Source: an uncultured bacterium
GTDB taxonomy: Bacteria > Krumholzibacteriota > Krumholzibacteriia > LZORAL124-64-63
DNA length: 64,000 bases
Direction: 5' to 3'
NCBI GenBank assembly: GCA_963732385.1
Contig: CAVSZB010000004.1
Coordinates: 32,001-96,000, forward strand
The notes below the pieces were generated by a model. It ran no database searches, was not told where the DNA came from, and saw only the letters and a list, made by a program, of their open reading frames with translations. Positions 20,224 to 32,714 of the stretch are shown one piece after another; position 1 is the stretch's first letter, and each line of letters begins with the position of its first letter. The translations under genes were made by a program, and so were the position numbers.

Positions 20224-21588
20224 TTGCGGACCATCCTCGTCGTTGACGACGAAATCGCCATCCGGACGGCGCTCGCCCGGATCCTGACCTATGAGAATTA
20301 CCGGGTCGTGCAGGCCGCTTCGGGCGCCGCCGCCCTGAAGGCTTTGGCCGGTGAGAGCATTGACGCCGTTCTGCTGGACATCAAGATGCCGGGCATGGAC
20401 GGTTTCGAGGTGCTCGATCTGATGGCGAAGTCGCCGGCGCCGCCGCCGGTGATCGTCATCTCCGGACACGGCAATATTGAAACCGCCGTGGAAGCAGTGC
20501 GCAAGGGCGCCTACGATTTCCTGGAAAAACCACCCGACCGCTCCAGGTTGCTGGTTACTTTGGAGAACTGCCTGGCGCACCGGCGCGTGCTTTTCGAGAA
20601 GGAGGACCTCAAGGCGCGGGGCGGTTTTCGCGATCCCCTCATTGGCGAATGTCCCCAGCTGCGCGAGGTGCGTTCTTTCATCGGGAAAGTCGCCCCCACC
20701 GACTCGACCGTTCTCATCACCGGCGAGAACGGAACAGGCAAGGAACTGGTTGTCCGAGCGTTGCACGAGCAGAGCCGCAGGCGCGAACAGGCGCTCGTGG
20801 AGGTGAACTGTGCCGCCATCCCACGCGAGCTCGTGGAAAGCGAACTGTTCGGGCATGAGAAGGGGGCCTTCACGGGCGCGGAGCGCCAGCGCATCGGCAA
20901 GTTCGAGCAGGCCGACGGCGGCACGCTCTTCCTCGATGAGATCGGCGACATGAGCGACGAGGCGCAGGCCAAGGTCCTGAAGGCTGTCGAGGAAAGCCGC
21001 TTCGAAAGGGTCGGCGGCAACGAAACGTTGCGGACCGATGTGCGCATCGTCGCGGCAACAAACCGCGATCTTGCGCGACCCGACTCCGGCTTCCGGCAGG
21101 ATCTGTTCTTCCGGCTCAACGTGCTGGCGATCCATCTGCCGCCGCTGCGCGACCGGGGCGATGACATTCCTCTTCTGCTTGAGTACTTCATGAGGATGCT
21201 CGCTCCCCACCTGAAGACGGTGCCCCGGGAGTTCAGCCCGGAAGCGCTGGCCCTCCTGCGCGAACACAACTGGCCGGGGAATGTCCGCGAACTACGAAAT
21301 CTCGTGGAGCGGCTGTTGATCCTCACGCCGGGCCCAGTGGTGCGTCCGGTCGATCTGCCTTTGTTGCGGCCGGTTCCCGAGGCTGGATCGGAGTTGGACG
21401 ATCTGTTGTCGTGCAAGGAGTTCCAGGATTTCAAGGCCCGGGCGGAGGCACTTTTCCTGCAGGCGAAACTGCGGGAGAATCGCTACAATGTCAGTCAGAC
21501 GGCAGAACAACTGGGAATGCAGCGGAGTAATCTTTACAAGAAGATCACCCGCTATCGCCTGAAAACCCAGCCCAACAGTCAGGATTGA
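20224..21588 (+). CDS. Sigma54-dependent response regulator (NtrX/NtrC-like: REC-AAA+-Fis HTH)
   Basis: ILVVDDE, LLDIKMP, ISGHG, GENGTGKE, GHEKGAFTGA, FLDEIGD, WPGNVREL. Confidence 0.93.
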   Translation: MRTILVVDDEIAIRTALARILTYENYRVVQAASGAAALKALAGESIDAVLLDIKMPGMDGFEVLDLMAKSPAPPPVIVISGHGNIETAVEAVRKGAYDFLEKPPDRSRLLVTLENCLAHRRVLFEKEDLKARGGFRDPLIGECPQLREVRSFIGKVAPTDSTVLITGENGTGKELVVRALHEQSRRREQALVEVNCAAIPRELVESELFGHEKGAFTGAERQRIGKFEQADGGTLFLDEIGDMSDEAQAKVLKAVEESRFERVGGNETLRTDVRIVAATNRDLARPDSGFRQDLFFRLNVLAIHLPPLRDRGDDIPLLLEYFMRMLAPHLKTVPREFSPEALALLREHNWPGNVRELRNLVERLLILTPGPVVRPVDLPLLRPVPEAGSELDDLLSCKEFQDFKARAEALFLQAKLRENRYNVSQTAEQLGMQRSNLYKKITRYRLKTQPNSQD

Positions 21589-21622
21589 TCGCCTCGGGGA
21601 GCGGGGAGGCGGGTTCCGGCAT

Positions 21623-21651
21623 TTGACTGGGAAAGCCAACTAACCTATAAT
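21623..21651 (+). promoter_or_regulatory. Near-consensus sigma70 promoter for the micro-protein / TPR-activator unit
   Basis: TTGACT (21623-28), 17-nt spacer, TATAAT (21646-51). Confidence 0.8.
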
Positions 21652-21755
21652 TATGCTTGCCTGATCGGGAGGATCGAGGTGGGCGGCCCGCAGCCGGTTT
21701 CCCGCAGCTTCCCTGGCGGGGCCACCCCACGGCCTCAAGGCTGAGGAGATCCGAT

Positions 21756-22091
21756 ATGAGCAAGATTCGATGGATCCTCGTGACCCTGCTGGCTTTGACA
21801 TTCTTCGGCGCTTCGGGTATTACTCCGGCAAGTGCAGCGACCGCGACCCAGCATCATGACCTGACCTTCGCGCCCGGCTCGACGGTGCTCCCACCGACCG
21901 CCGGAGTACTCGGGGGCGGTGGGGGTGGTGGCGTCACGAATGGCGATCCCGACGACATCATCGAGGGTAATCGCGTGTTTGCTGTGGCTGCCCGATCATC
22001 CACCGTGTCCTTTGCGTCGGTCGGTACGGCCGTACTGCTCTGGCTCAAGGTGGGTGGAGTGACCCTTCTGCTGCGGCGCCTGTTGCCGTAG
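21756..22091 (+). CDS. Small secreted/membrane-anchored protein (111 aa): signal peptide, Gly7 linker, NGDPDDIIEG motif, C-terminal hydrophobic helix plus RR
   Basis: GAGGAG RBS then ATG at 21756; MSKIRWILVTLLALTFFGASGITPASA signal; ends ...VGTAVLLWLKVGGVTLLLRRLLP. Confidence 0.75.
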   Translation: MSKIRWILVTLLALTFFGASGITPASAATATQHHDLTFAPGSTVLPPTAGVLGGGGGGGVTNGDPDDIIEGNRVFAVAARSSTVSFASVGTAVLLWLKVGGVTLLLRRLLP

Positions 22092-22175
22092 CGTTTGAGG
22101 CGATCACTAGTCGGGTGGCGGAGCCGCCGAAAGTGTGGGAGTGATCCATCCACCCACTCGCCAGGGGACGGGTTG

Positions 22176-25100
22176 ATGAGCGAGCAGCCGAGCGGGTACA
22201 GCAGGCATGAGGCGGAATATCCCGAGCGTTCGCACGCGCTCGACGCGGAGGAGTGCGATCGGTTGGAGGAGATCGGTGATCTCAACGCGCAGGCCTCTGC
22301 CTACAGTTCCTCGCTGGAGTACTATCGACGACTACTTGAAGGTGCCACGCTGCGGTTGCTCATCCCGGCCCGTCGGGCAGGAGTGCTGCGCAAGAGTGTC
22401 GATGCCGCGCTGAATATCGGTGATCTCGCCCTTGCGGAATCATTGCTTGGACTCGCTCCCTCTCTCTTCGACGCCGCCGACGATCTGACGGCCGAGGAGC
22501 GCGCCCATCTCCTTGCCCCTCTAATGGGCAGACGGGCCATTCTTCTCTCCCAGCTGGGACTGTTCAGCGACGCCCTGCAGGCCGCCAAGCATGCCTTCGC
22601 CATCCTGGCCGTGACGGACGAACATCGGGAGGTGGCGAACCTGCAGGTGACGATGGGGGCCTGCCACCAGCGCCTCGGACGTCTGGACAAGGCGGAGGAA
22701 TTTTATCTCGACGCACTCTCCAGTTATCGGCGGATCGGAGACGAACTGGGTGCGGCCACGCTGCACAACAACCTCGGGCTGCTCCACAAGAACGCCTGTC
22801 GCTGGAACCGGGCGCTCGATCTTCTCGAGAAGGCGGTAGCCATAGCGCAGCGTCATGGCGCCACACATCTGCTGGCCCGCCTGCACCTGAATCGCGGCAT
22901 CATTCTCGGGAAGATCGGACGTCTGGGCGAAGCTCGCGAGGATCTCGACCGCAGCCTGCGCCTGTCGCGGAGCCTCGGTGACCGGAATCGTCAGGCCAAG
23001 GTCTGTCTGGCCTACGGGCTGCTGGAAATGCGTGCTGGACGGCTCGTCAAAGCCGAGGAGTTCGTGCTTGAGGGCAAGAACCTGGCCGAACAGGAGCGGT
23101 ACCTGCGCGAGGAAACAATCGCCGACGAGTACCTTGGGGATATCCTGCTGCTGCGCGGCGAAACCGACAAGGCGCTCTTCAATTACAGTCTGGGTCTCGA
23201 CAAGAGTCGCACGATCGGCAAGGTCTGTGATCTGGAGGGCGAACTGCTCCGTCGGGTCGCCGAGGCGCAGCGGATGCGGGGCGACCTCGAACAGGCGATC
23301 GAAACCGGCCTCGCGGCGGTGGCGGTCTGCGAGAAGTGCGGCGAACTGTACGAACTGGGATTCTGCCATCTGACACTCGGCCGCGCCCGCACGACCCGGG
23401 GAGACTTTGCCGGAGCGGATGCGGAGTTCAGGCGCGCGATCCAGCTGTTCCGGCAGCAGAACCTGCCCCGACTTTGGATCGATGCGATCCTCGCTTTCCT
23501 TGATGCCCGGCTCGCCACGGCCGCCCAGCCGGAATTCCTGCTGTTGCGCCGCTATCTGAGCGAGGCTCAGGAGAGCGGGAGCGCTGTGCTGGATGACCGC
23601 CTGCTCTGCCGGCTGCAGCAGGGGCTGGCGGAAGTGCAGATGCGGCTCGGCCAGTTCGACGACGCTCTGCTGACGGCCTATGAACTCGAGCGCAACGCAG
23701 GCGGGCTGGGCGATGCCGGGCTCGGCCTCGCGATCAGCGATTTGCGCGGACGCATCGAACGCGCTCTGCTCGGCGACATCGGGAGCACCGAGAACCACCT
23801 CCAGGCGATTTCCGGAATCCCGGGCATCTTCAGTTGGCATGATGCCTCCATCCCGCGCAATCTCACGGCGGTCCTGCGGGCGGGGATGGACCGGGTACGC
23901 GCCGATCATGGTTTCATCGCTCTCGACTGGGCAGAGGCCGGGACACATCCGCTGCGTGTGGTGGCGCGCGAGGGGCTTTCCGACAATCTCTCGGATCAAC
24001 TCGGGCGCTGGTACCGCGAGAGTGTCCCCGCCAGCGTGGATTCGGCGAACCCCGTCCTTTTCTCCCGGCTGGCCGGGGGCGAACCGCTGCTGGCCGCCGT
24101 GCCGGCCCTCCGGGACAGGGCGGCCGGGTGTCTCTTCATGCCGATCACGCTCGAGGGCAGACGATTCGGCGTCCTCTACCTGGGACGCAGCAGCCTTGTG
24201 GGTGGTGAGGTGGCCTTCGGGCGCCCCGCGCTCGACTTTCTGGCGACCTACATGGGCTTTCTCGCACTGTTCCTGTTCGAGAAGGGGCGGGGACGTCTGC
24301 CCGGCGAGCCTCTTGTGCCGGTGGCGCCTTCAGGCGAGGCCCCCAGTTTCGAGCAGATCATCACCGAGAACGAGCAGATGCTCGAACTGCTCGCCCTCAT
24401 CCGCAAGGTGGCTCCCAGCGACCTCACCGTTCTGCTGACTGGAGAAACCGGCACCGGCAAGGGGCTGCTGGCTCAGGCAGTCCACTCGCTCAGCCGGCGG
24501 CACGGAGGTCGCTTCCTGGCGATCAACTGCGCGGCGATTCCCGAAACGCTGTTGGAAAGCGAGTTGTTCGGACACGTCAAGGGCAGTTTCACCGGGGCGA
24601 TCGGCGACAAGCGCGGGCTGCTTGCGGAGGCCGCGGGGGGCTCTGTCTTCCTGGACGAAATCGGGAAGATGCCGCTCAGCATGCAGGGCAAACTGCTTCA
24701 GTTCCTGGACACCAGGGTCATCCGTCCGGTCGGCTCCAACCAGGAGCGCCAGGTCGATGTGCGTATCATCTGCGCCAGCAAATCCGATCTCCACGACCTG
24801 ACGGAACGGGGACTTTTCCTCCAGGATCTTTTCTACCGGTTGCTCGATTTTCCGCTCGTTGTACCACCGCTGCGCACCCGTCGCGATGATATCCAGTTGC
24901 TCGCGCACCATTTCATCGAACGCTTTGCCGGGGAACTGGGGATTGCGCCACCCGGCTACACCTCCTCGTTCATGGATGCGCTGGTGGCGCACGACTGGCC
25001 CGGCAACATCCGCGAGCTGGAGAAGTCGGTCCGGAGGGCGATAGTCCTGGCCCAGGAGGAGCGCGTTCTCAAGCCGGAACATCTGCCGCGTGAGATCGGC

Positions 25101-25292
25101 GCGGGACGGTCGGCAGGGAAGGTCGGCCGACCTGCGCCGCTGCGCGAGACTCTGGCGACGGTCGAATGCCGGGAGATCGCCGAAGCACTCCGCCTGACGC
25201 GCGGGAACAAGTCGGAGACCGCCCGGATGCTGGAGATCAGCTACCCCAATCTGCTCAAGAAGATCCGTTTCTACGGCCTTCAGACTTCCTGA
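22176..25292 (+). CDS. Sigma54 enhancer-binding activator with a long N-terminal TPR array, GAF-like domain, AAA+ and HTH
   Basis: TPR-like repeats (e.g. ATLHNNLGLLHKNACRWNRALDLLEKA); GETGTGKG, ESELFGHVKGSFTGA, FLDEIGK, WPGNIREL, GNKSETARML; no receiver domain. Confidence 0.9.
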   Translation: MSEQPSGYSRHEAEYPERSHALDAEECDRLEEIGDLNAQASAYSSSLEYYRRLLEGATLRLLIPARRAGVLRKSVDAALNIGDLALAESLLGLAPSLFDAADDLTAEERAHLLAPLMGRRAILLSQLGLFSDALQAAKHAFAILAVTDEHREVANLQVTMGACHQRLGRLDKAEEFYLDALSSYRRIGDELGAATLHNNLGLLHKNACRWNRALDLLEKAVAIAQRHGATHLLARLHLNRGIILGKIGRLGEAREDLDRSLRLSRSLGDRNRQAKVCLAYGLLEMRAGRLVKAEEFVLEGKNLAEQERYLREETIADEYLGDILLLRGETDKALFNYSLGLDKSRTIGKVCDLEGELLRRVAEAQRMRGDLEQAIETGLAAVAVCEKCGELYELGFCHLTLGRARTTRGDFAGADAEFRRAIQLFRQQNLPRLWIDAILAFLDARLATAAQPEFLLLRRYLSEAQESGSAVLDDRLLCRLQQGLAEVQMRLGQFDDALLTAYELERNAGGLGDAGLGLAISDLRGRIERALLGDIGSTENHLQAISGIPGIFSWHDASIPRNLTAVLRAGMDRVRADHGFIALDWAEAGTHPLRVVAREGLSDNLSDQLGRWYRESVPASVDSANPVLFSRLAGGEPLLAAVPALRDRAAGCLFMPITLEGRRFGVLYLGRSSLVGGEVAFGRPALDFLATYMGFLALFLFEKGRGRLPGEPLVPVAPSGEAPSFEQIITENEQMLELLALIRKVAPSDLTVLLTGETGTGKGLLAQAVHSLSRRHGGRFLAINCAAIPETLLESELFGHVKGSFTGAIGDKRGLLAEAAGGSVFLDEIGKMPLSMQGKLLQFLDTRVIRPVGSNQERQVDVRIICASKSDLHDLTERGLFLQDLFYRLLDFPLVVPPLRTRRDDIQLLAHHFIERFAGELGIAPPGYTSSFMDALVAHDWPGNIRELEKSVRRAIVLAQEERVLKPEHLPREIGAGRSAGKVGRPAPLRETLATVECREIAEALRLTRGNKSETARMLEISYPNLLKKIRFYGLQTS

Positions 25293-25373
25293 CGCGCGCC
25301 AGCCTTTTTTTATAACCTCAGGCCAGATGCGCCCCGTCGTCTGTAAATTGTTTTAATACATTAAATAGCATTA

Positions 25374-25386
25374 TATCAACGACTTG
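25374..25386 (+). promoter_or_regulatory. IHF-like binding site
   Basis: TATCAA-CGAC-TTG matches WATCAANNNNTTR and is preceded by an AT tract (25343-25373) in a GC-rich genome. Confidence 0.65.
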
Positions 25387-25512
25387 CTCGTTCAGGCCCC
25401 GGGCTGTCAACGATTGAATCAATCGCGGGCCCCGACCTCCGATGAATACCGTTTCATGATTTGTAAATGACTTTTCTACAATAACTTAAGAATTTTCGAG
25501 CGAAGCAGTCTG

Positions 25513-25528
25513 TGGCACGCGGAGTGCT
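25513..25528 (+). promoter_or_regulatory. Sigma54 (-24/-12) promoter 1
   Basis: TGGCACGCGGAGTGCT: GG and GC are correctly spaced against TGGCACG-N4-TTGC, downstream of a sigma54 activator gene and an AT-rich region. Confidence 0.75.
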
Positions 25529-25539
25529 GTACATGGCGT

Positions 25540-25883
25540 CTGAAGGGGCTCTCGTTGCAGGGAAACAGCCGCTTCTCAAGGTCCAGGCCGCTGGGGCGGC
25601 AGAATTTGGGGAGGGATATCCGGGTTCGCGATCCTCACTGCTTACCGGCTGAAAGAGGAGGTTCTCTTCGTGGGTTCTGCCTGCGGGTTCTTGAGAGGTG
25701 GGGTCTTGAGGACCGATCGGGCAGAGTAGAGAGAACCGGCGGAACGGATCCCTCCCCGAAGTTCCATTCAAAGCCTGACCAGTCAGGCACGTGTCGGTGC
25801 GAGGAAAGAGCCGGGCTGGCCTTGAATTGGCGAGATTCAAGGTCGGCCGTGCCGGAACCCCGGCGGGCTCTTTCCTCATTTTT
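25540..25883 (+). ncRNA. Candidate sigma54-dependent structured non-coding RNA (~340 nt), family unknown
   Basis: Starts at the predicted TSS of the sigma54 promoter. Stems: 25568-75/25593-600; 25605-17/25748-60; internal TCTGCC/GGCAGA hairpin; 25773-88; GAGGAAAGAGCC (25801-12)/GGCTCTTTCCTC (25866-77) followed by ATTTTT. No credible long ORF. Confidence 0.6.
25801..25883 (+). terminator. Branched 3' stem with U-tract (probable intrinsic terminator of the ncRNA)
   Basis: 12-bp perfect closing stem enclosing two hairpins, then ATTTTT. Confidence 0.55.
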
Positions 25884-26174
25884 CCGTCTCACCGGACCGG
25901 CATGCAGCCTGTTCTCCCCTGTCCTGCGTCATCGGCTGCCAAGTCTGCTCCGCGTCTACTCCTGGAGATCCGCTGGACTCTGTTGAGCACAAAGGGGACG
26001 GTGCCGCCCATCGCGGGCGCACGCCGGCTGGCGGCAGTCGTCCTCTTCCACCTTTCGGGTTGGGGCGGGCTCAGCAATCAAGATCCTCTAATTAAACAAT
26101 TTACGCTGATGCATTCCTCCGCCGCGCACGGCATGCCGCCGTACGGCATCCGATCCGTGGCTGAGCCGTGAGCC

Positions 26175-26190
26175 TGGCACGATGTCTGCG
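26175..26190 (+). promoter_or_regulatory. Sigma54 (-24/-12) promoter 2
   Basis: TGGCACGATGTCTGCG with correct GG/GC spacing, about 80 nt upstream of the ATG at 26269. Confidence 0.7.
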
Positions 26191-26268
26191 ATACTCCAGG
26201 GCCCGGCCGTGACACATCACAGGTGCGGTGCGGGGCTGGCGGCGGCGGACGAAGTGAGGGAGGAAGAG

Positions 26269-27150
26269 ATGAAGCTGGCGCAGGCGGTGACCCTGGCGAT
26301 CCTGCCACTGGCGTTGGCGATCTGGCTCGGCGGCTGTTCCGAAGAAGATTGCATCGAGTGCGTGGACCGAGATCCCCCCGCGGTGCCGACCGGAGTGTAC
26401 AGTGTCACCGGAGACGGCCGTATCACCGTGTTTTGGAACGACATCTACCAGAGCGATCTGGCGGGCTACGCCGTTTATCGGGATGACAATGCCGACGGCG
26501 AATTCGAGCATCTCGCCGATCTCGCCTGGGACGAGAATTGGGATCAGACCACCGGCCTGCACCAGTACGTGGACGAACCGGTCACGAACGGCCTGACCTA
26601 CGAGTACGCGGTCGCTTCGTACGACGTGGCGGGGAACGAGAGCGAGCTCAGCTTCGAGGTCGTGCTCGACACGCCGCGTCCCGAGGGGTTCGATGTCGAT
26701 CTCTTCGACCGTCTCGTCACGCCGGCCGCCAGCGGCTTCGACTTCAGCCGCGCTCTGCGGGTCCCGGCTGCGGATGCCACGGCCGACATCTTTGTCGAGT
26801 GGTCCGGAGATGTCCCCTTCGTCTGTGCCGCGCGCAGTGATGTCGAACTGCAGGACTACGGCAACGTGATGACCGACTCGGGCTTCATCGATCTCGATCT
26901 GCTCAGCTACGCCCCCCTCGAGGGCTGGACGGTCGCGCGACGGGTCGAGGCGATTAGGGGCCATGCCTATGTCGTGCGTGTTGGCACTTCCACCTATCAC
27001 TACGCGAAGATCGCGGTCATGGCTCTCGACGGCATCACGGGCTCGATTACTGTTGATTGGGCGTATCAGATCGCCGCCGACAATCGGGAACTGAAGGCGA
27101 TGCCGGCGCCGCCTCGCACGGGAGTCGTCGTCGAAGTGATGAGTTTCTAG
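26269..27150 (+). CDS. Lipoprotein with fibronectin type III-like domain
   Basis: Lipobox LGG-C; 'PPAVPTGVYSVTGDGRITVFW...DLAGYAVYR...NGLTYEYAVASYDVAGNES' is an FN3-like pattern. Confidence 0.8.
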   Translation: MKLAQAVTLAILPLALAIWLGGCSEEDCIECVDRDPPAVPTGVYSVTGDGRITVFWNDIYQSDLAGYAVYRDDNADGEFEHLADLAWDENWDQTTGLHQYVDEPVTNGLTYEYAVASYDVAGNESELSFEVVLDTPRPEGFDVDLFDRLVTPAASGFDFSRALRVPAADATADIFVEWSGDVPFVCAARSDVELQDYGNVMTDSGFIDLDLLSYAPLEGWTVARRVEAIRGHAYVVRVGTSTYHYAKIAVMALDGITGSITVDWAYQIAADNRELKAMPAPPRTGVVVEVMSF

Positions 27151-29183: not shown

Positions 29184-29241
29184 CGCCACATCTGTGGCCC
29201 GCCCGCGACGAATCCCCGCGCGACCCGTGAGGAAGATCGGC

Positions 29242-30036
29242 ATGCCGAAGTCGCCCAGTTCCCGGATCGGTGTTTCCGTGCCACATCCTGTCCGATGCCG
29301 GCGTTGGTGTGCGCTCCAGGCCGGTGTGATGCTGGTGCTGCTCGTCGCGGCCGTCGCCGTGCCGGCCGCTCCCGGGCCGTTGTCCCGCGCGCCCCGGCTG
29401 TTGCCGTCGGCGGTGCGGGAGGCCCTGGCCGAGCGGTCGGCACCGCTGCTCGCTGACGGTTCCCGTACCCTGCAACGCCAGCGTCTCGCGGGAGTCAGCC
29501 CCGCGGATACGCTGTCAGTGGTCGTGCTGCTCTGCGACTTCGCTGACAGTTTGCTGTATGGTCGGTATGGCACGGTTCCGGGCGAGTTTCCACCGCCCCG
29601 GCAGAGCGATTTCTACTATGCGGCGCACGACTCGCTTTTTTTCGCGCATCAGTTTGCCGACGTGGCCGCGTACTTCGACGCTGTCAGCGGCGGGCGTCTC
29701 ACGGTGCGCTGCGCGGTCGTGGGGGCCGTGGCGAATCTGGCCCGGCCGATGGGCTGGTATGGCGATCACCCCTTGGCGGGTGAGCAGCCGGTGTTGCTGG
29801 CGCGGGACGTGATCGCGGCACTCGACAACAGGGTGGACTTCTCACGCTTCGACACCGTGGTCATCGTACACGCGGGAGCGGGTGAGGAAACCGATCTGCT
29901 GAACGATTCGCCGGAACAGATCTACAGCACCTACCTCGGCCCCGAGGACTTTGCCCGCGCGGCGGAAGATACGATGCTGACCCGGCCTTACCTGCCCACC
30001 GACGATGTCGATGGGGGGGGGATCCGGTCGTTGTGA
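29242..30036 (+). CDS. N-terminal part of an M6 (immune inhibitor A)-like secreted protein; frameshifted at a G9 tract
   Basis: Signal-like region; 'VVLLCDFAD...YFDAVSGG...VDFSRFD..VIVHAGAGEE' is the M6 N-terminal pattern; the ORF ends just after G9 at 30013-30021. Confidence 0.7.
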   Translation: MPKSPSSRIGVSVPHPVRCRRWCALQAGVMLVLLVAAVAVPAAPGPLSRAPRLLPSAVREALAERSAPLLADGSRTLQRQRLAGVSPADTLSVVVLLCDFADSLLYGRYGTVPGEFPPPRQSDFYYAAHDSLFFAHQFADVAAYFDAVSGGRLTVRCAVVGAVANLARPMGWYGDHPLAGEQPVLLARDVIAALDNRVDFSRFDTVVIVHAGAGEETDLLNDSPEQIYSTYLGPEDFARAAEDTMLTRPYLPTDDVDGGGIRSL

Positions 30037-32714
30037 ATCAGGTGCTGGTGCTGCCGGAAACGGAATTCCAGGATCCGTTCGCCGGTTTCGGCGGCTACTT
30101 CGGCTCCCTGGGGGTCTACTGTTTCGAGATTGGACTGCGTCTGGGTATGTTTTCGCTGAGCGACTTCACGCCGGCGGGGCATCCCGACAGTCAGGGCGTG
30201 GGCGAATTCGACCTGATGGGCTACGGACTGTTCGTTGGCGCCGGCTTTATCCCCTGCCAGCCTTCCGCCTTCAACAAGCTCCTCATGGGCTGGATCGAAC
30301 CGTATGCCGTCGAACCGGGCGCCGGAGGGGTTTGGCGTCTGGATCCGATCGAGAGTGCGACCGGGGATTCGCTGGCGGCGCGGGTGGAGATCGGCGGACG
30401 GGAGTACTGGCTGCTCGAGTACCGCCTGCAGGATCCTGACGGGAACCGCATCTTCTCCTTCGCCGGTGATCTCAACGGCAACAATATCCCCGATTTTCTG
30501 GACGCGAATTCGGCCAACGGTGATGGCACCCCGACCGGTTTATTCGATCCCGCGACCGACACGCGTGAACTGCTGACCGGCGCCGAGTGGGACTTCTTCA
30601 TGAGCGAGAACCAGGCGCGGCAGCCAGGCGTGAAGGGAGCCGGCAGCGGGCTGTATGTCTGGCATGTCGACGAGGGGGTGATCACAGACGCCATCGAGGC
30701 GGAGGGAAGTCTCTTCAACTCCGATCCGCGCCGTAAGTCCGTCGATCTGGAGGAGGCCGACGGCATCCAGGATCTCGACTCGCGCCAGCCCTCGGAGTAC
30801 ATGCTCGGTGGCGACTTCGACAGCTTCCGGGGCGAGGACAACGCCACGTTCGGCCCGACGACCAACCCCGACAGCCGCTCAGCCGGCGGCGCCTGGACCG
30901 GCGTGGTGATCGATCAGATCGCCAACGTGGTGGCCGACTCCAGCGCGATCTCCACCGTCCCGCCACGGATATTCATTCGCTACGCCGACCATCTGACTTT
31001 CCGCTGCCGGCGAAACGAACCGGACACCGGCCCCGTGTTGGGCGTGGAGCGGCGGCTGGACGGCGTCGATCTTGCCGGTTCGCACCTGCTGGCGGTGGAT
31101 CTCGACGCGCCGCCCGATGGCCGGCTGGAGATCGTCGCCGGAGGGGCGCGTGGCGAGGTTTTCGCCTTTGAGTCGGACCTGTCCGAGCAGTACGACGGTG
31201 ACGCCACTCCCGCCACCAGCGGGATCCTGGCGATCGGGACCGACGCCGAAGGTGTGCCGGTGCGCTGGAACGGGCCTGCCGCCGCCGGCGATCTCGACGG
31301 GGACGGTCGGCAGGAGATCCTGCTCTGCGGACCGCATGGTCTGTACGCTTTCGACGGTGAGGACGGTCGTGAGCTTGCCGATGGTGACGACGATCCGGAC
31401 AGCTTCGGGCTGCTGGCGCCTCTGGAGCATTGCGCGCTGCCTCCGGTTCTGATTCCCGCCACAGGCGGTGTCGAGGCCTATGACCCGGGCCGCAGCGTCG
31501 TGGCCTGCGTGGTCGAGACGTACGGTGAGCCGGCGCGATCGCGTTTGCGCTGGTTCGACGCCGACGGACGGGACGCTCTGCCGCCGCTGTTGCTGGGGAC
31601 CGTCTCCGTCCTGGCGCCACCGACTCCGGTTGCCGCGACGCGTCTGGCGCTCGCGGTGGTGGATACGGCGACAGGAGAGTCGACGTTGCGGTTGGTCACG
31701 TGGGCCCCGCCGGCGACACCGGTCGTCGCGGCGACCTGGCCGCTCTCCCTGACCCCGGGGACGGCGCCCCTGCTGGCGGTCGTGGCCGAGGGTCCGCTGC
31801 GGGGCGCCGTGATCGTGGACTCGGAGGGTGCGGCCGAGACCGTGTGGTGGAACGAAAACGAGGAATTCGTGCGGCGGGATGCCTGGCCGATCGACTCACC
31901 GGTGCGCAGCCCGCTGTCGGCCGGCTGTGCTTATGTTGGCCAGGGGAGTCTGGCGAGAGTGACGGTTGTGGGCGCGCCGCTTACCGGCTGGCCGATGCGT
32001 CCCCGGCCGGAGATCGACGCCGCACCGGCCGCGATGGCCCCCGCGCCGCTGGAAGCGCGGTCGGCCGGCAGGGATCTGACGCTTTTCCAGAGCCGCGACG
32101 GCCGTCTCTATCTGAACGGGGATGATGGTCGCACCCAGGCCGGCTGGCCGGTGGCGGGACCTTCCGCAGCGTCCGGGACCGGTCTGCTCATCGATCTGGA
32201 CGGCGATTCCAGCCTGGAAATCTGCGTGGTGGGAGCTTTCGCGCGCATCGAGGGCCGGAACGTGGAGACGGGCGGCCTGCGCACGGATCCGGTTTCGCGC
32301 CTGGCGATCTACCGCACGGGGATCGTGGCGGAAGGTGATGGCGGTCCGGGCTGGTCGACATGGCAGGGGAATCCGTGGCGCTGGCCCCTGACGCGCCCGC
32401 AGTCCGTCGCCCCGACGTTGCCGGAGCTGATCTTGGCGGGAAGCCACATCTGCTATCCGACGCCGCTGGACCGCGGCCCCCTGCACGTGCGGGCCGAATT
32501 CGGGGCCGCGTGTGTGGCGCAGGCCACGCTGTATGATCTGATGGGCCAACTGGTGGCGACTTCGACGGCCGTGGCCATTCCTGGCCGCGGGCCGGGTGAG
32601 ATCGTGCTGTCGGCGGAGGGACTCGCCAGCGGGCTTTACCTCTGCCGACTGGTCGCTGAAAGGGCGGGGCTGCCTACCGGGACCAGTGTGGCTCCGGTGG
32701 CGGTGGTGCGCTGA
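30033..32714 (+). CDS. C-terminal part of the M6-like protein with FG-GAP-like repeats and a T9SS-like C-terminal domain
   Basis: 'VLPETE...LGVYCFEIGLRLG...GEFDLMGYG...KLLMGWI', GDLDGDGRQEI and DLDGDSSLEI repeats, C-terminal 'YPTP...YDLMGQLV...LASGLYLCRL'. Confidence 0.75.
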   Translation: MNQVLVLPETEFQDPFAGFGGYFGSLGVYCFEIGLRLGMFSLSDFTPAGHPDSQGVGEFDLMGYGLFVGAGFIPCQPSAFNKLLMGWIEPYAVEPGAGGVWRLDPIESATGDSLAARVEIGGREYWLLEYRLQDPDGNRIFSFAGDLNGNNIPDFLDANSANGDGTPTGLFDPATDTRELLTGAEWDFFMSENQARQPGVKGAGSGLYVWHVDEGVITDAIEAEGSLFNSDPRRKSVDLEEADGIQDLDSRQPSEYMLGGDFDSFRGEDNATFGPTTNPDSRSAGGAWTGVVIDQIANVVADSSAISTVPPRIFIRYADHLTFRCRRNEPDTGPVLGVERRLDGVDLAGSHLLAVDLDAPPDGRLEIVAGGARGEVFAFESDLSEQYDGDATPATSGILAIGTDAEGVPVRWNGPAAAGDLDGDGRQEILLCGPHGLYAFDGEDGRELADGDDDPDSFGLLAPLEHCALPPVLIPATGGVEAYDPGRSVVACVVETYGEPARSRLRWFDADGRDALPPLLLGTVSVLAPPTPVAATRLALAVVDTATGESTLRLVTWAPPATPVVAATWPLSLTPGTAPLLAVVAEGPLRGAVIVDSEGAAETVWWNENEEFVRRDAWPIDSPVRSPLSAGCAYVGQGSLARVTVVGAPLTGWPMRPRPEIDAAPAAMAPAPLEARSAGRDLTLFQSRDGRLYLNGDDGRTQAGWPVAGPSAASGTGLLIDLDGDSSLEICVVGAFARIEGRNVETGGLRTDPVSRLAIYRTGIVAEGDGGPGWSTWQGNPWRWPLTRPQSVAPTLPELILAGSHICYPTPLDRGPLHVRAEFGAACVAQATLYDLMGQLVATSTAVAIPGRGPGEIVLSAEGLASGLYLCRLVAERAGLPTGTSVAPVAVVR

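Follow-up and report, generated by a model that had tools for sequence, protein, structure and literature searches.

A small precursor gene paired with a TPR-containing sigma54 activator in Candidatus Krumholzibacteriota

The window, a stretch of 64,000 nucleotides, carries on its forward strand a small open reading frame (ORF) of 111 amino acids (21756..22091), followed after a gap of 84 nt by the gene for a TPR-GAF-AAA+(sigma54)-HTH activator of 1038 residues (22176..25292); the other features at this locus lie on the same strand. The translated small ORF starts with basic residues, continues into a hydrophobic stretch and shows an ASA-A site at residues 25-28. Residues 1-27 (21756..21836) are predicted to be a Sec signal peptide, both the signal peptide and its cleavage site being judged from composition alone and the family counts being given below. 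Further on, a Gly7 linker (residues 53-59, 21912..21932) is followed by the acidic segment NGDPDDIIEGNR at residues 62-73, which contains the conserved core GDPDDIIEGNR (residues 63-73, 21942..21974), predicted to dock in the activator's TPR groove. The ORF closes with a hydrophobic tail (22011..22088) that has a top 19-residue hydropathy of 1.75 and an RR close to its terminus. The precursor-like layout described for this ORF in the initial annotation is indeed present in the window copy.

A sigma70-type promoter, TTGACT-17-TATAAT (21623..21651), lies ahead of the pair; it matches at 11 of 12 positions (shuffles gave a mean of 0.7) and is the single sigma70-like site found in 21400-26400. A comparable site, scoring 8-11/12, was found upstream in all 28 loci scanned, and a ribosome binding site, GAGGAG (21743..21748), precedes the small ORF. 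In three RNA runs on freshwater sediment, all from a single study, contigs of relatives approximately 90-95% identical cover the gene pair; one of these, from a relative of about 91% identity, spans 21668-22163 and starts just past the predicted promoter, and the same three runs gave no contig coverage of 21500-21663. These contigs lend weak support to transcription of the pair, not to its translation; none extends over the structured RNA downstream (see below), a gap from which nothing follows. Judged by its deduced protein, its orthologue loci and the RNA-library contig, the 111-aa ORF is a real gene. It matched no Pfam or NCBIfam family, nor did an alignment of 28 precursors at any meaningful level, and a search with the precursor profile retrieved 62 homologues that are all named merely 'hypothetical protein'; a protein atlas search gave no usable match, a result that says nothing on novelty or absence.

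The pair resides in the phylum Ca. Krumholzibacteriota, where the activator was found in 120 of 121 genomes; it is also present in 40 of 41 relatives, and the related loci are mostly labelled Ca. Krumholzibacteriota or unclassified. At all 30 orthologue loci fetched first, the activator is preceded by a small ORF whose product begins like a signal peptide and contains a GD-type core; 28 were recognised through a pattern and two (L029 and L030) through inspection. Eighty additional loci overlap partly with the first genomes and come from related, hence non-independent, genomes; five with too little upstream DNA were left out, and 67 of the 75 scored passed a fixed pattern for the upstream precursor, as compared with 2 of 1988 control windows. 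The pairing is thus far above chance, and conservation of the ORF in synteny with a GD-type core, on which the original proposal depended, is borne out by both sets. The eight misses consist of four loci with a variant core, two with a signal-bearing ORF that is apparently frameshifted, and two with nothing. The peptide profile also reached three genomes outside its building set (E 3e-6 or better), in each of which the match adjoins the activator. The activator family extends to Ca. Eisenbacteria, the name on 3 of 10 clusters looked up; a metagenome scan toward Eisenbacteria-type loci yielded 80 loci that match in the C-terminal part only, mostly the AAA+ domain, and the precursor gene counts cover Krumholzibacteriota loci only. 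A search of plasmids gave just three partial TPR matches.

We have counted the traits of the precursor in 67 non-redundant orthologue pairs, whose receptors are less than 95% identical. The core type across this family is GDPDDxxxGN[RK], 11 residues long, and its pairwise identity of 0.91, 0.66 and 0.49 over steps of falling receptor identity is far above that of the flanks over the same steps (0.46-0.31, 0.15-0.10 and 0.09-0.08), so the acidic segment, singled out at the outset as the informative part, is the conserved element of the precursor. The invariance of the first two core positions, GD, is partly circular since GD was used for locating the core, but Pro +2 (54/67), Asp +3 (49/67), Asp +4 (51/67) and Gly +8 (61/67) were left free, or nearly so, by the search pattern. 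Third codon positions of the core Gly and Asp vary freely (identity 0.40), which indicates that selection on the core acts at the protein level. Retention of the core as an RNA target was considered and rejected, because of these free third positions and because the loop-complementary GACCCC occurs in just 7 of 67 coding regions. The variants GDPDDIIEGNR, GDPDDAITGNR, GDPGDAGDG and GDADDYANGR track receptor clades in a quick tree that gave long-branch warnings, as is expected from shared ancestry alone.

The remainder of the precursor, 99-126 aa long with a median of 107, is more loosely kept. All 67 orthologues have K/R within residues 2-5, and a loose small-x-small motif is found in 63 of them, with a lipobox in one. 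In every orthologue the core lies inside the precursor on variable linkers, at a distance of 31-56 residues from the C-terminus, and the residue preceding it is so variable that no cleavage signature is seen. Two elements of the initial annotation do not extend to the family: a Gly run of at least four residues occurs in 1/67, confining the poly-Gly linker to the window copy, and the proposed transmembrane helix with RR dissolves into a tail of transmembrane strength in 10/67 and a terminal basic pair in 4/67. What is shared by 67/67 is a second hydrophobic element, a short hydrophobic or amphipathic helix usually below transmembrane strength, which follows the core in 56 precursors and precedes it in 11. 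These 11 precursors, all of the GDAD type (L025, L026, L028, L130, L137, L140, L141, L143, L144, L147 and L150), imply that a fixed C-terminal membrane anchor is not required. Two copies of the GDP core are present in the precursors encoded upstream of the L086 and L131 activators.

The activator carries the features of a sigma54 enhancer-binding protein: besides an N-terminal TPR region (TPR_12, E 6e-23 in Pfam) and a weak GAF match, it has a Sigma54_activat domain whose AAA+ loop reads GSFTGA (GAFTGA-type) and a C-terminal Fis-type HTH (HTH_8), and RpoN and -24/-12 sites go with it. Its best 19-residue hydropathy of 1.39 (1.14-1.98 in orthologues) points to no clear transmembrane segment, in agreement with what had been noted from the sequence at first. 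The TPR superhelix spans about 22239-23795, and a model of residues 22-540 is all-helical with a pLDDT of 92.5. Foldseek ranked LGN first for this model; upon re-alignment the Z scores were 29.7 for APPBP2, 27.5 for phi3T Rap (rmsd 4.2, 352 residues aligned), 26.9 for Bacillus Rap, 26.1 for MalT domain III, 26.0 for LGN and 25.7 for NprR, with the Rap, NprR and MalT-III alignments covering about 350 residues at an rmsd of 3.5-5.0. As APPBP2 and LGN rank alongside the others, the match is non-specific, and the modelled TPR domain is best described as a peptide-binding TPR fold, not specifically one of the RRNPP type.

We have modelled the TPR region together with a 31-mer around the core, and obtained a score of 0.82 against 0.19 for the best of three controls; the mark used for this score is one that 116 of 157 solved complexes attained, against 2 of 215 mismatched pairs, a calibration that holds only roughly for our own alignments. 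The runs had at least 56% of contacts in common, with a partner pLDDT of at least 51, and confident contacts are limited to residues 11-24 of the 31-mer, that is, to the core. The predicted contacts centre on Asn199 (conservation 1.0) and Asn239 (0.97). The 50 interface positions are more conserved than the 306 others (0.68 vs 0.60; for polar residues 0.70 vs 0.56), and include the invariant residues Asp352, Glu356, Glu390 and Glu393. Such an acidic patch beside an acidic peptide might serve to bind a metal ion or a free amino terminus. The score may in part reflect likeness to solved TPR-peptide complexes, yet the predicted complex supports binding of the core in the TPR groove, and the early suggestion that the acidic segment is a ligand of the adjoining activator has gained a structural model in its favour.

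Similar pairs are found elsewhere in these genomes. The genome of the window contains a second one (G000:C5:404840-407993, minus strand), in which an ORF with a signal-like start and GDPDD has a TPR-sigma54 gene behind it; about 19 kb away lies a second, frame-split match to the RpoN core-binding domain (C5:426364-426926). A survey of 40 weaker TPR matches, taken from the top of the match list, gave 36 sigma54 activators. An ORF with signal and core lies upstream of 28 of these 36, often overlapping the activator start; in one further case the core is cut by the contig end, two have a signal-bearing ORF without a core, and five are orphans. Upstream of the four non-sigma54 TPR genes no precursor was found, barring one borderline pattern match. 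The supposition that the small gene travels with TPR-sigma54 activators is upheld by these 28 of 36 paralogues in addition to the loci above, and the pairs were duplicated as two-gene units.

Downstream of the activator, a sigma54 -24/-12 promoter lies at 25513..25527; a site of this kind, some 200-240 nt past the activator, was found in 50 of 61 loci, as compared with 103 of 866 background windows. It precedes a conserved structured non-coding RNA of about 345 nt (25539..25886, ends approximate; z -5.29), in which two-sided changes support 29 of 35 pairs, a count reached by none of 500 shuffles and above all slid controls. Its invariant loops are GGUGGGGUC and GGCGAG, its 3' end is terminator-like, and an Rfam search with it gave no credible match. 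(At the locus L140, positions 1566-1620 of the plus strand match Rfam DUF3800-VI above the gathering score, unrelated to the peptide pair.) A second sigma54 promoter (26175..26189), assigned by site match and synteny, precedes two genes, one for a lipoprotein (26269-27150) and one for a DUF4384 protein. The structured RNA is likely an output of the activator. A conserved CTCGCC (22157..22162), complementary to the GGCGAG loop, adjoins the ribosome site of the activator in 58 of 67 loci vs 15 of 67 control windows, and in 44 of 45 loci in a second count. In pairing energy with the RNA loop, 19 of 44 target windows fell in the best 5%, a weak result, and one obtained with windows selected for the site itself. 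The conserved neighbour just upstream of the pair encodes an NtrX-like response regulator, an activator that could equally drive the sigma54 promoters.

Taken together, the sequences themselves show a gene pair that is conserved and co-duplicated, a core under selection at the protein level, the domains of the activator and two downstream sigma54 promoters, one of them followed by a structured RNA. The mechanism that we favour on balance is one in which the core of a probably exported precursor would, after trimming and re-import, bind the TPR groove of the cytoplasmic sigma54 activator and switch sigma54 transcription. That the TPR domain recognises the core directly is its best-supported step and a probable one; for the route of the core, analogy with RRNPP systems (PMC9765709) and with PatX-HetR of diderm cyanobacteria (PMC12756182) tips us toward export, trimming and Opp-type import. 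The precursor would be exported by Sec to the periplasm, proteases would free the core, and an Opp/Dpp-type transporter would take it up; the peptide may leave the cell as a quorum signal or cycle via the cell's own periplasm. In the cytoplasm, according to the model, the core would occupy the TPR groove and rest on Asn199 and Asn239, from where it would control the AAA+ domain, as an activator or an inhibitor with about even chances. The adjoining sigma54 promoters would be targets of the activator, and the structured RNA may feed back on the activator's ribosome site. An acidic 11-mer would cross an outer membrane poorly. LpxC, RpoN and Opp/Dpp-type genes are present in the window's genome, and an Opp-type binding protein was found in 41 of 41 genomes, a count that says little, as 11 of 14 control genomes have Opp as well. 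A secreted-looking gene at 29194-32714 (plus strand) lies in two overlapping frames with a break near 30033; the second part has an FG-GAP match, and the first, with no Pfam match, resembles by eye what we take to be an M6-type metalloprotease, making this gene a candidate precursor-processing enzyme. A broader reading, in which re-imported, clade-specific acidic peptides would switch TPR-sigma54 activators across the phylum as parallel channels, with RNA feedback at the core locus, is put forward tentatively, as the less probable extension.

Alternatively, the full-length precursor could be bound by the TPR domain while still in the cytoplasm, ahead of its export or in place of it, such that the activator would read Sec capacity or envelope stress. 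This would need neither trimming nor import and would sidestep the outer-membrane problem; it also accords with a model that docks the core with both flanks attached, with a core that is always internal on variable linkers and bears no cleavage signature, and with a main pair that is near-universal, syntenic and next to envelope genes, as suits a housekeeping role. Nevertheless, clade-specific cores, and the occurrence in one genome of several paralogous pairs in parallel, are more in keeping with separate signal channels than with a single stress sensor, and duplicated cores such as those of L086 and L131 are a trait reported for RRNPP propeptides (PMC9765709). We regard this explanation as unlikely, though the most serious of the competitors to re-import.

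Rather improbable, in our judgement, is signalling through a membrane relay by a precursor held by its amphipathic helix, with the TPR docking a modelling artefact: the second hydrophobic helix in every precursor and the NtrX-like response regulator as conserved neighbour would agree with it, but the paralogous pairs are duplicated as two-gene units with no relay gene seen in their immediate neighbourhoods, and the model picks exactly the conserved core and the conserved groove residues. That the core stalls the ribosome in the manner of SecM, controlling translation of the activator, is very improbable indeed. The small upstream ORF, its signal sequence and a spacer of more than 30 residues before a conserved Pro/Asp motif recall such arrest peptides, and the precursor shares part of the screening traits set out in PMC10987492. 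In the Sec/YidC arrest class (SecM, ApdP), however, a C-terminal motif lies upstream of sec or yidC; here the motif is internal with 31-100 residues following, is not RAPP-like, and is conserved downstream of GDP, not upstream, and the next gene is the activator, neither sec nor yidC.

The proposed re-import mechanism has its closest counterpart in the RRNPP(A) systems of Bacillota (Rap-Phr, NprR-NprX, PlcR-PapR and AimR-AimP). There, too, the gene for a cytoplasmic TPR protein adjoins that for a small precursor of (here predicted) Sec type, the peptides vary by clade, pairs have paralogues, some receptors are orphans and cores are occasionally duplicated; Rap and NprR align to our TPR model with Z scores of 25.7-27.5. 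PMC10075063 describes such signalling, in which a cytoplasmic TPR receptor reads a peptide, for Gram-positive Bacillota, and sets as criteria a propeptide of 10-100 aa with a Sec signal peptide, a receptor of 250-500 aa with C-terminal TPRs whose groove binds the cognate peptide, adjacent genes, and maturation outside the cell with Opp re-import; NprX is the stated exception to C-terminal mature peptides. Set beside these criteria, the Krumholzibacteriota genes are adjacent (84 nt apart) and the receptor carries TPRs (TPR_12, all-helical model); the signal peptide is predicted from composition, groove binding has the support of the modelled complex, and Opp-type genes are present; but the precursor has 111 aa (99-126 aa in orthologues) and the receptor has 1038 aa with N-terminal TPRs, thereby departing from two of the five published criteria and from the C-terminal TPR layout (PMC10075063). 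The published detector would miss the pair because of size and domain order (PMC10075063). The pair further differs in its diderm host, a receptor of 780-1040 aa with sigma54 AAA+ output, an internal acidic 11-mer, an extra amphipathic helix, and the near-universality of the main pair in its phylum. The pair would thus represent peptide-TPR signalling of RRNPP-like working in a variant form; the modelled likeness to RRNPP receptors is that of a generic TPR fold.

MalT domain III and the TPR of LGN/GPSM2 show a similar superhelix (Z about 26), but neither is known to have a secreted-peptide gene partner or a sigma54 domain. On the output side, in the LuxO-Qrr and CbrB-CrcZ circuits, too, a structured RNA transcribed from a sigma54 promoter lies beside the gene of a sigma54 activator and may feed back on that activator's mRNA. 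Their input is phosphorylation of a receiver domain, whereas the Krumholzibacteriota activator has a TPR domain, for which a peptide is the predicted ligand, and the Krumholzibacteriota RNA has no Rfam match. A diderm parallel is the PatX-PatP-HetR system, whose regulator HetR is not known to be a TPR or sigma54 protein. According to PMC12756182, in these filamentous cyanobacteria a Sec-exported precursor is cleaved in the periplasm and its peptide acts on a cytoplasmic regulator. The arrangement proposed here is alike in its diderm host, its small precursor of predicted Sec type and a short peptide that would target a transcription regulator in the cytoplasm, and unlike in that the PatX peptide is basic (HRGTGR, PMC12756182) and the Krumholzibacteriota core acidic.

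No description of a peptide-TPR-sigma54 pair was found in the literature searched, whose coverage stops short of most subscription journals and of preprint supplements, and a term search of bioRxiv 10.1101/2023.09.19.558401 gave no matching passages; within that literature the pair is undescribed, and the peptide falls under no family model or named database entry. A conserved module of peptide, TPR receptor and sigma54 output, present in almost all genomes of a diderm phylum, would give sigma54 activators a new input mode. If the broader, less probable reading of phylum-wide re-imported peptides is true, it would be a peptide quorum circuit with an intracellular receptor in double-membrane bacteria, joining an RRNPP-like input to a LuxO/Qrr-like output. 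The pair can be tested without culturing the host, since it offers an 11-residue peptide, a high-confidence TPR model, and natural cognate and non-cognate pairs.

Some loci also carry variant partnerships. Five paralogous activators (L032, L034, L036, L042 and L047) are without the Walker A and GAFTGA-type patterns scanned and have kept a GDPGDG precursor; they are possibly sigma54-independent. At L037 (G032:C18), upstream of an activator of about 990 aa, the signal-peptide ORF carries a different, non-GDP segment. In the window's own genome, the small ORF behind a TPR-containing sigma54-type activator of about 1500 aa (G000:C8:187105-192125, plus strand) has a signal peptide but lacks the GDP core, and frames of 1400-1570 aa like this activator recur in relatives.
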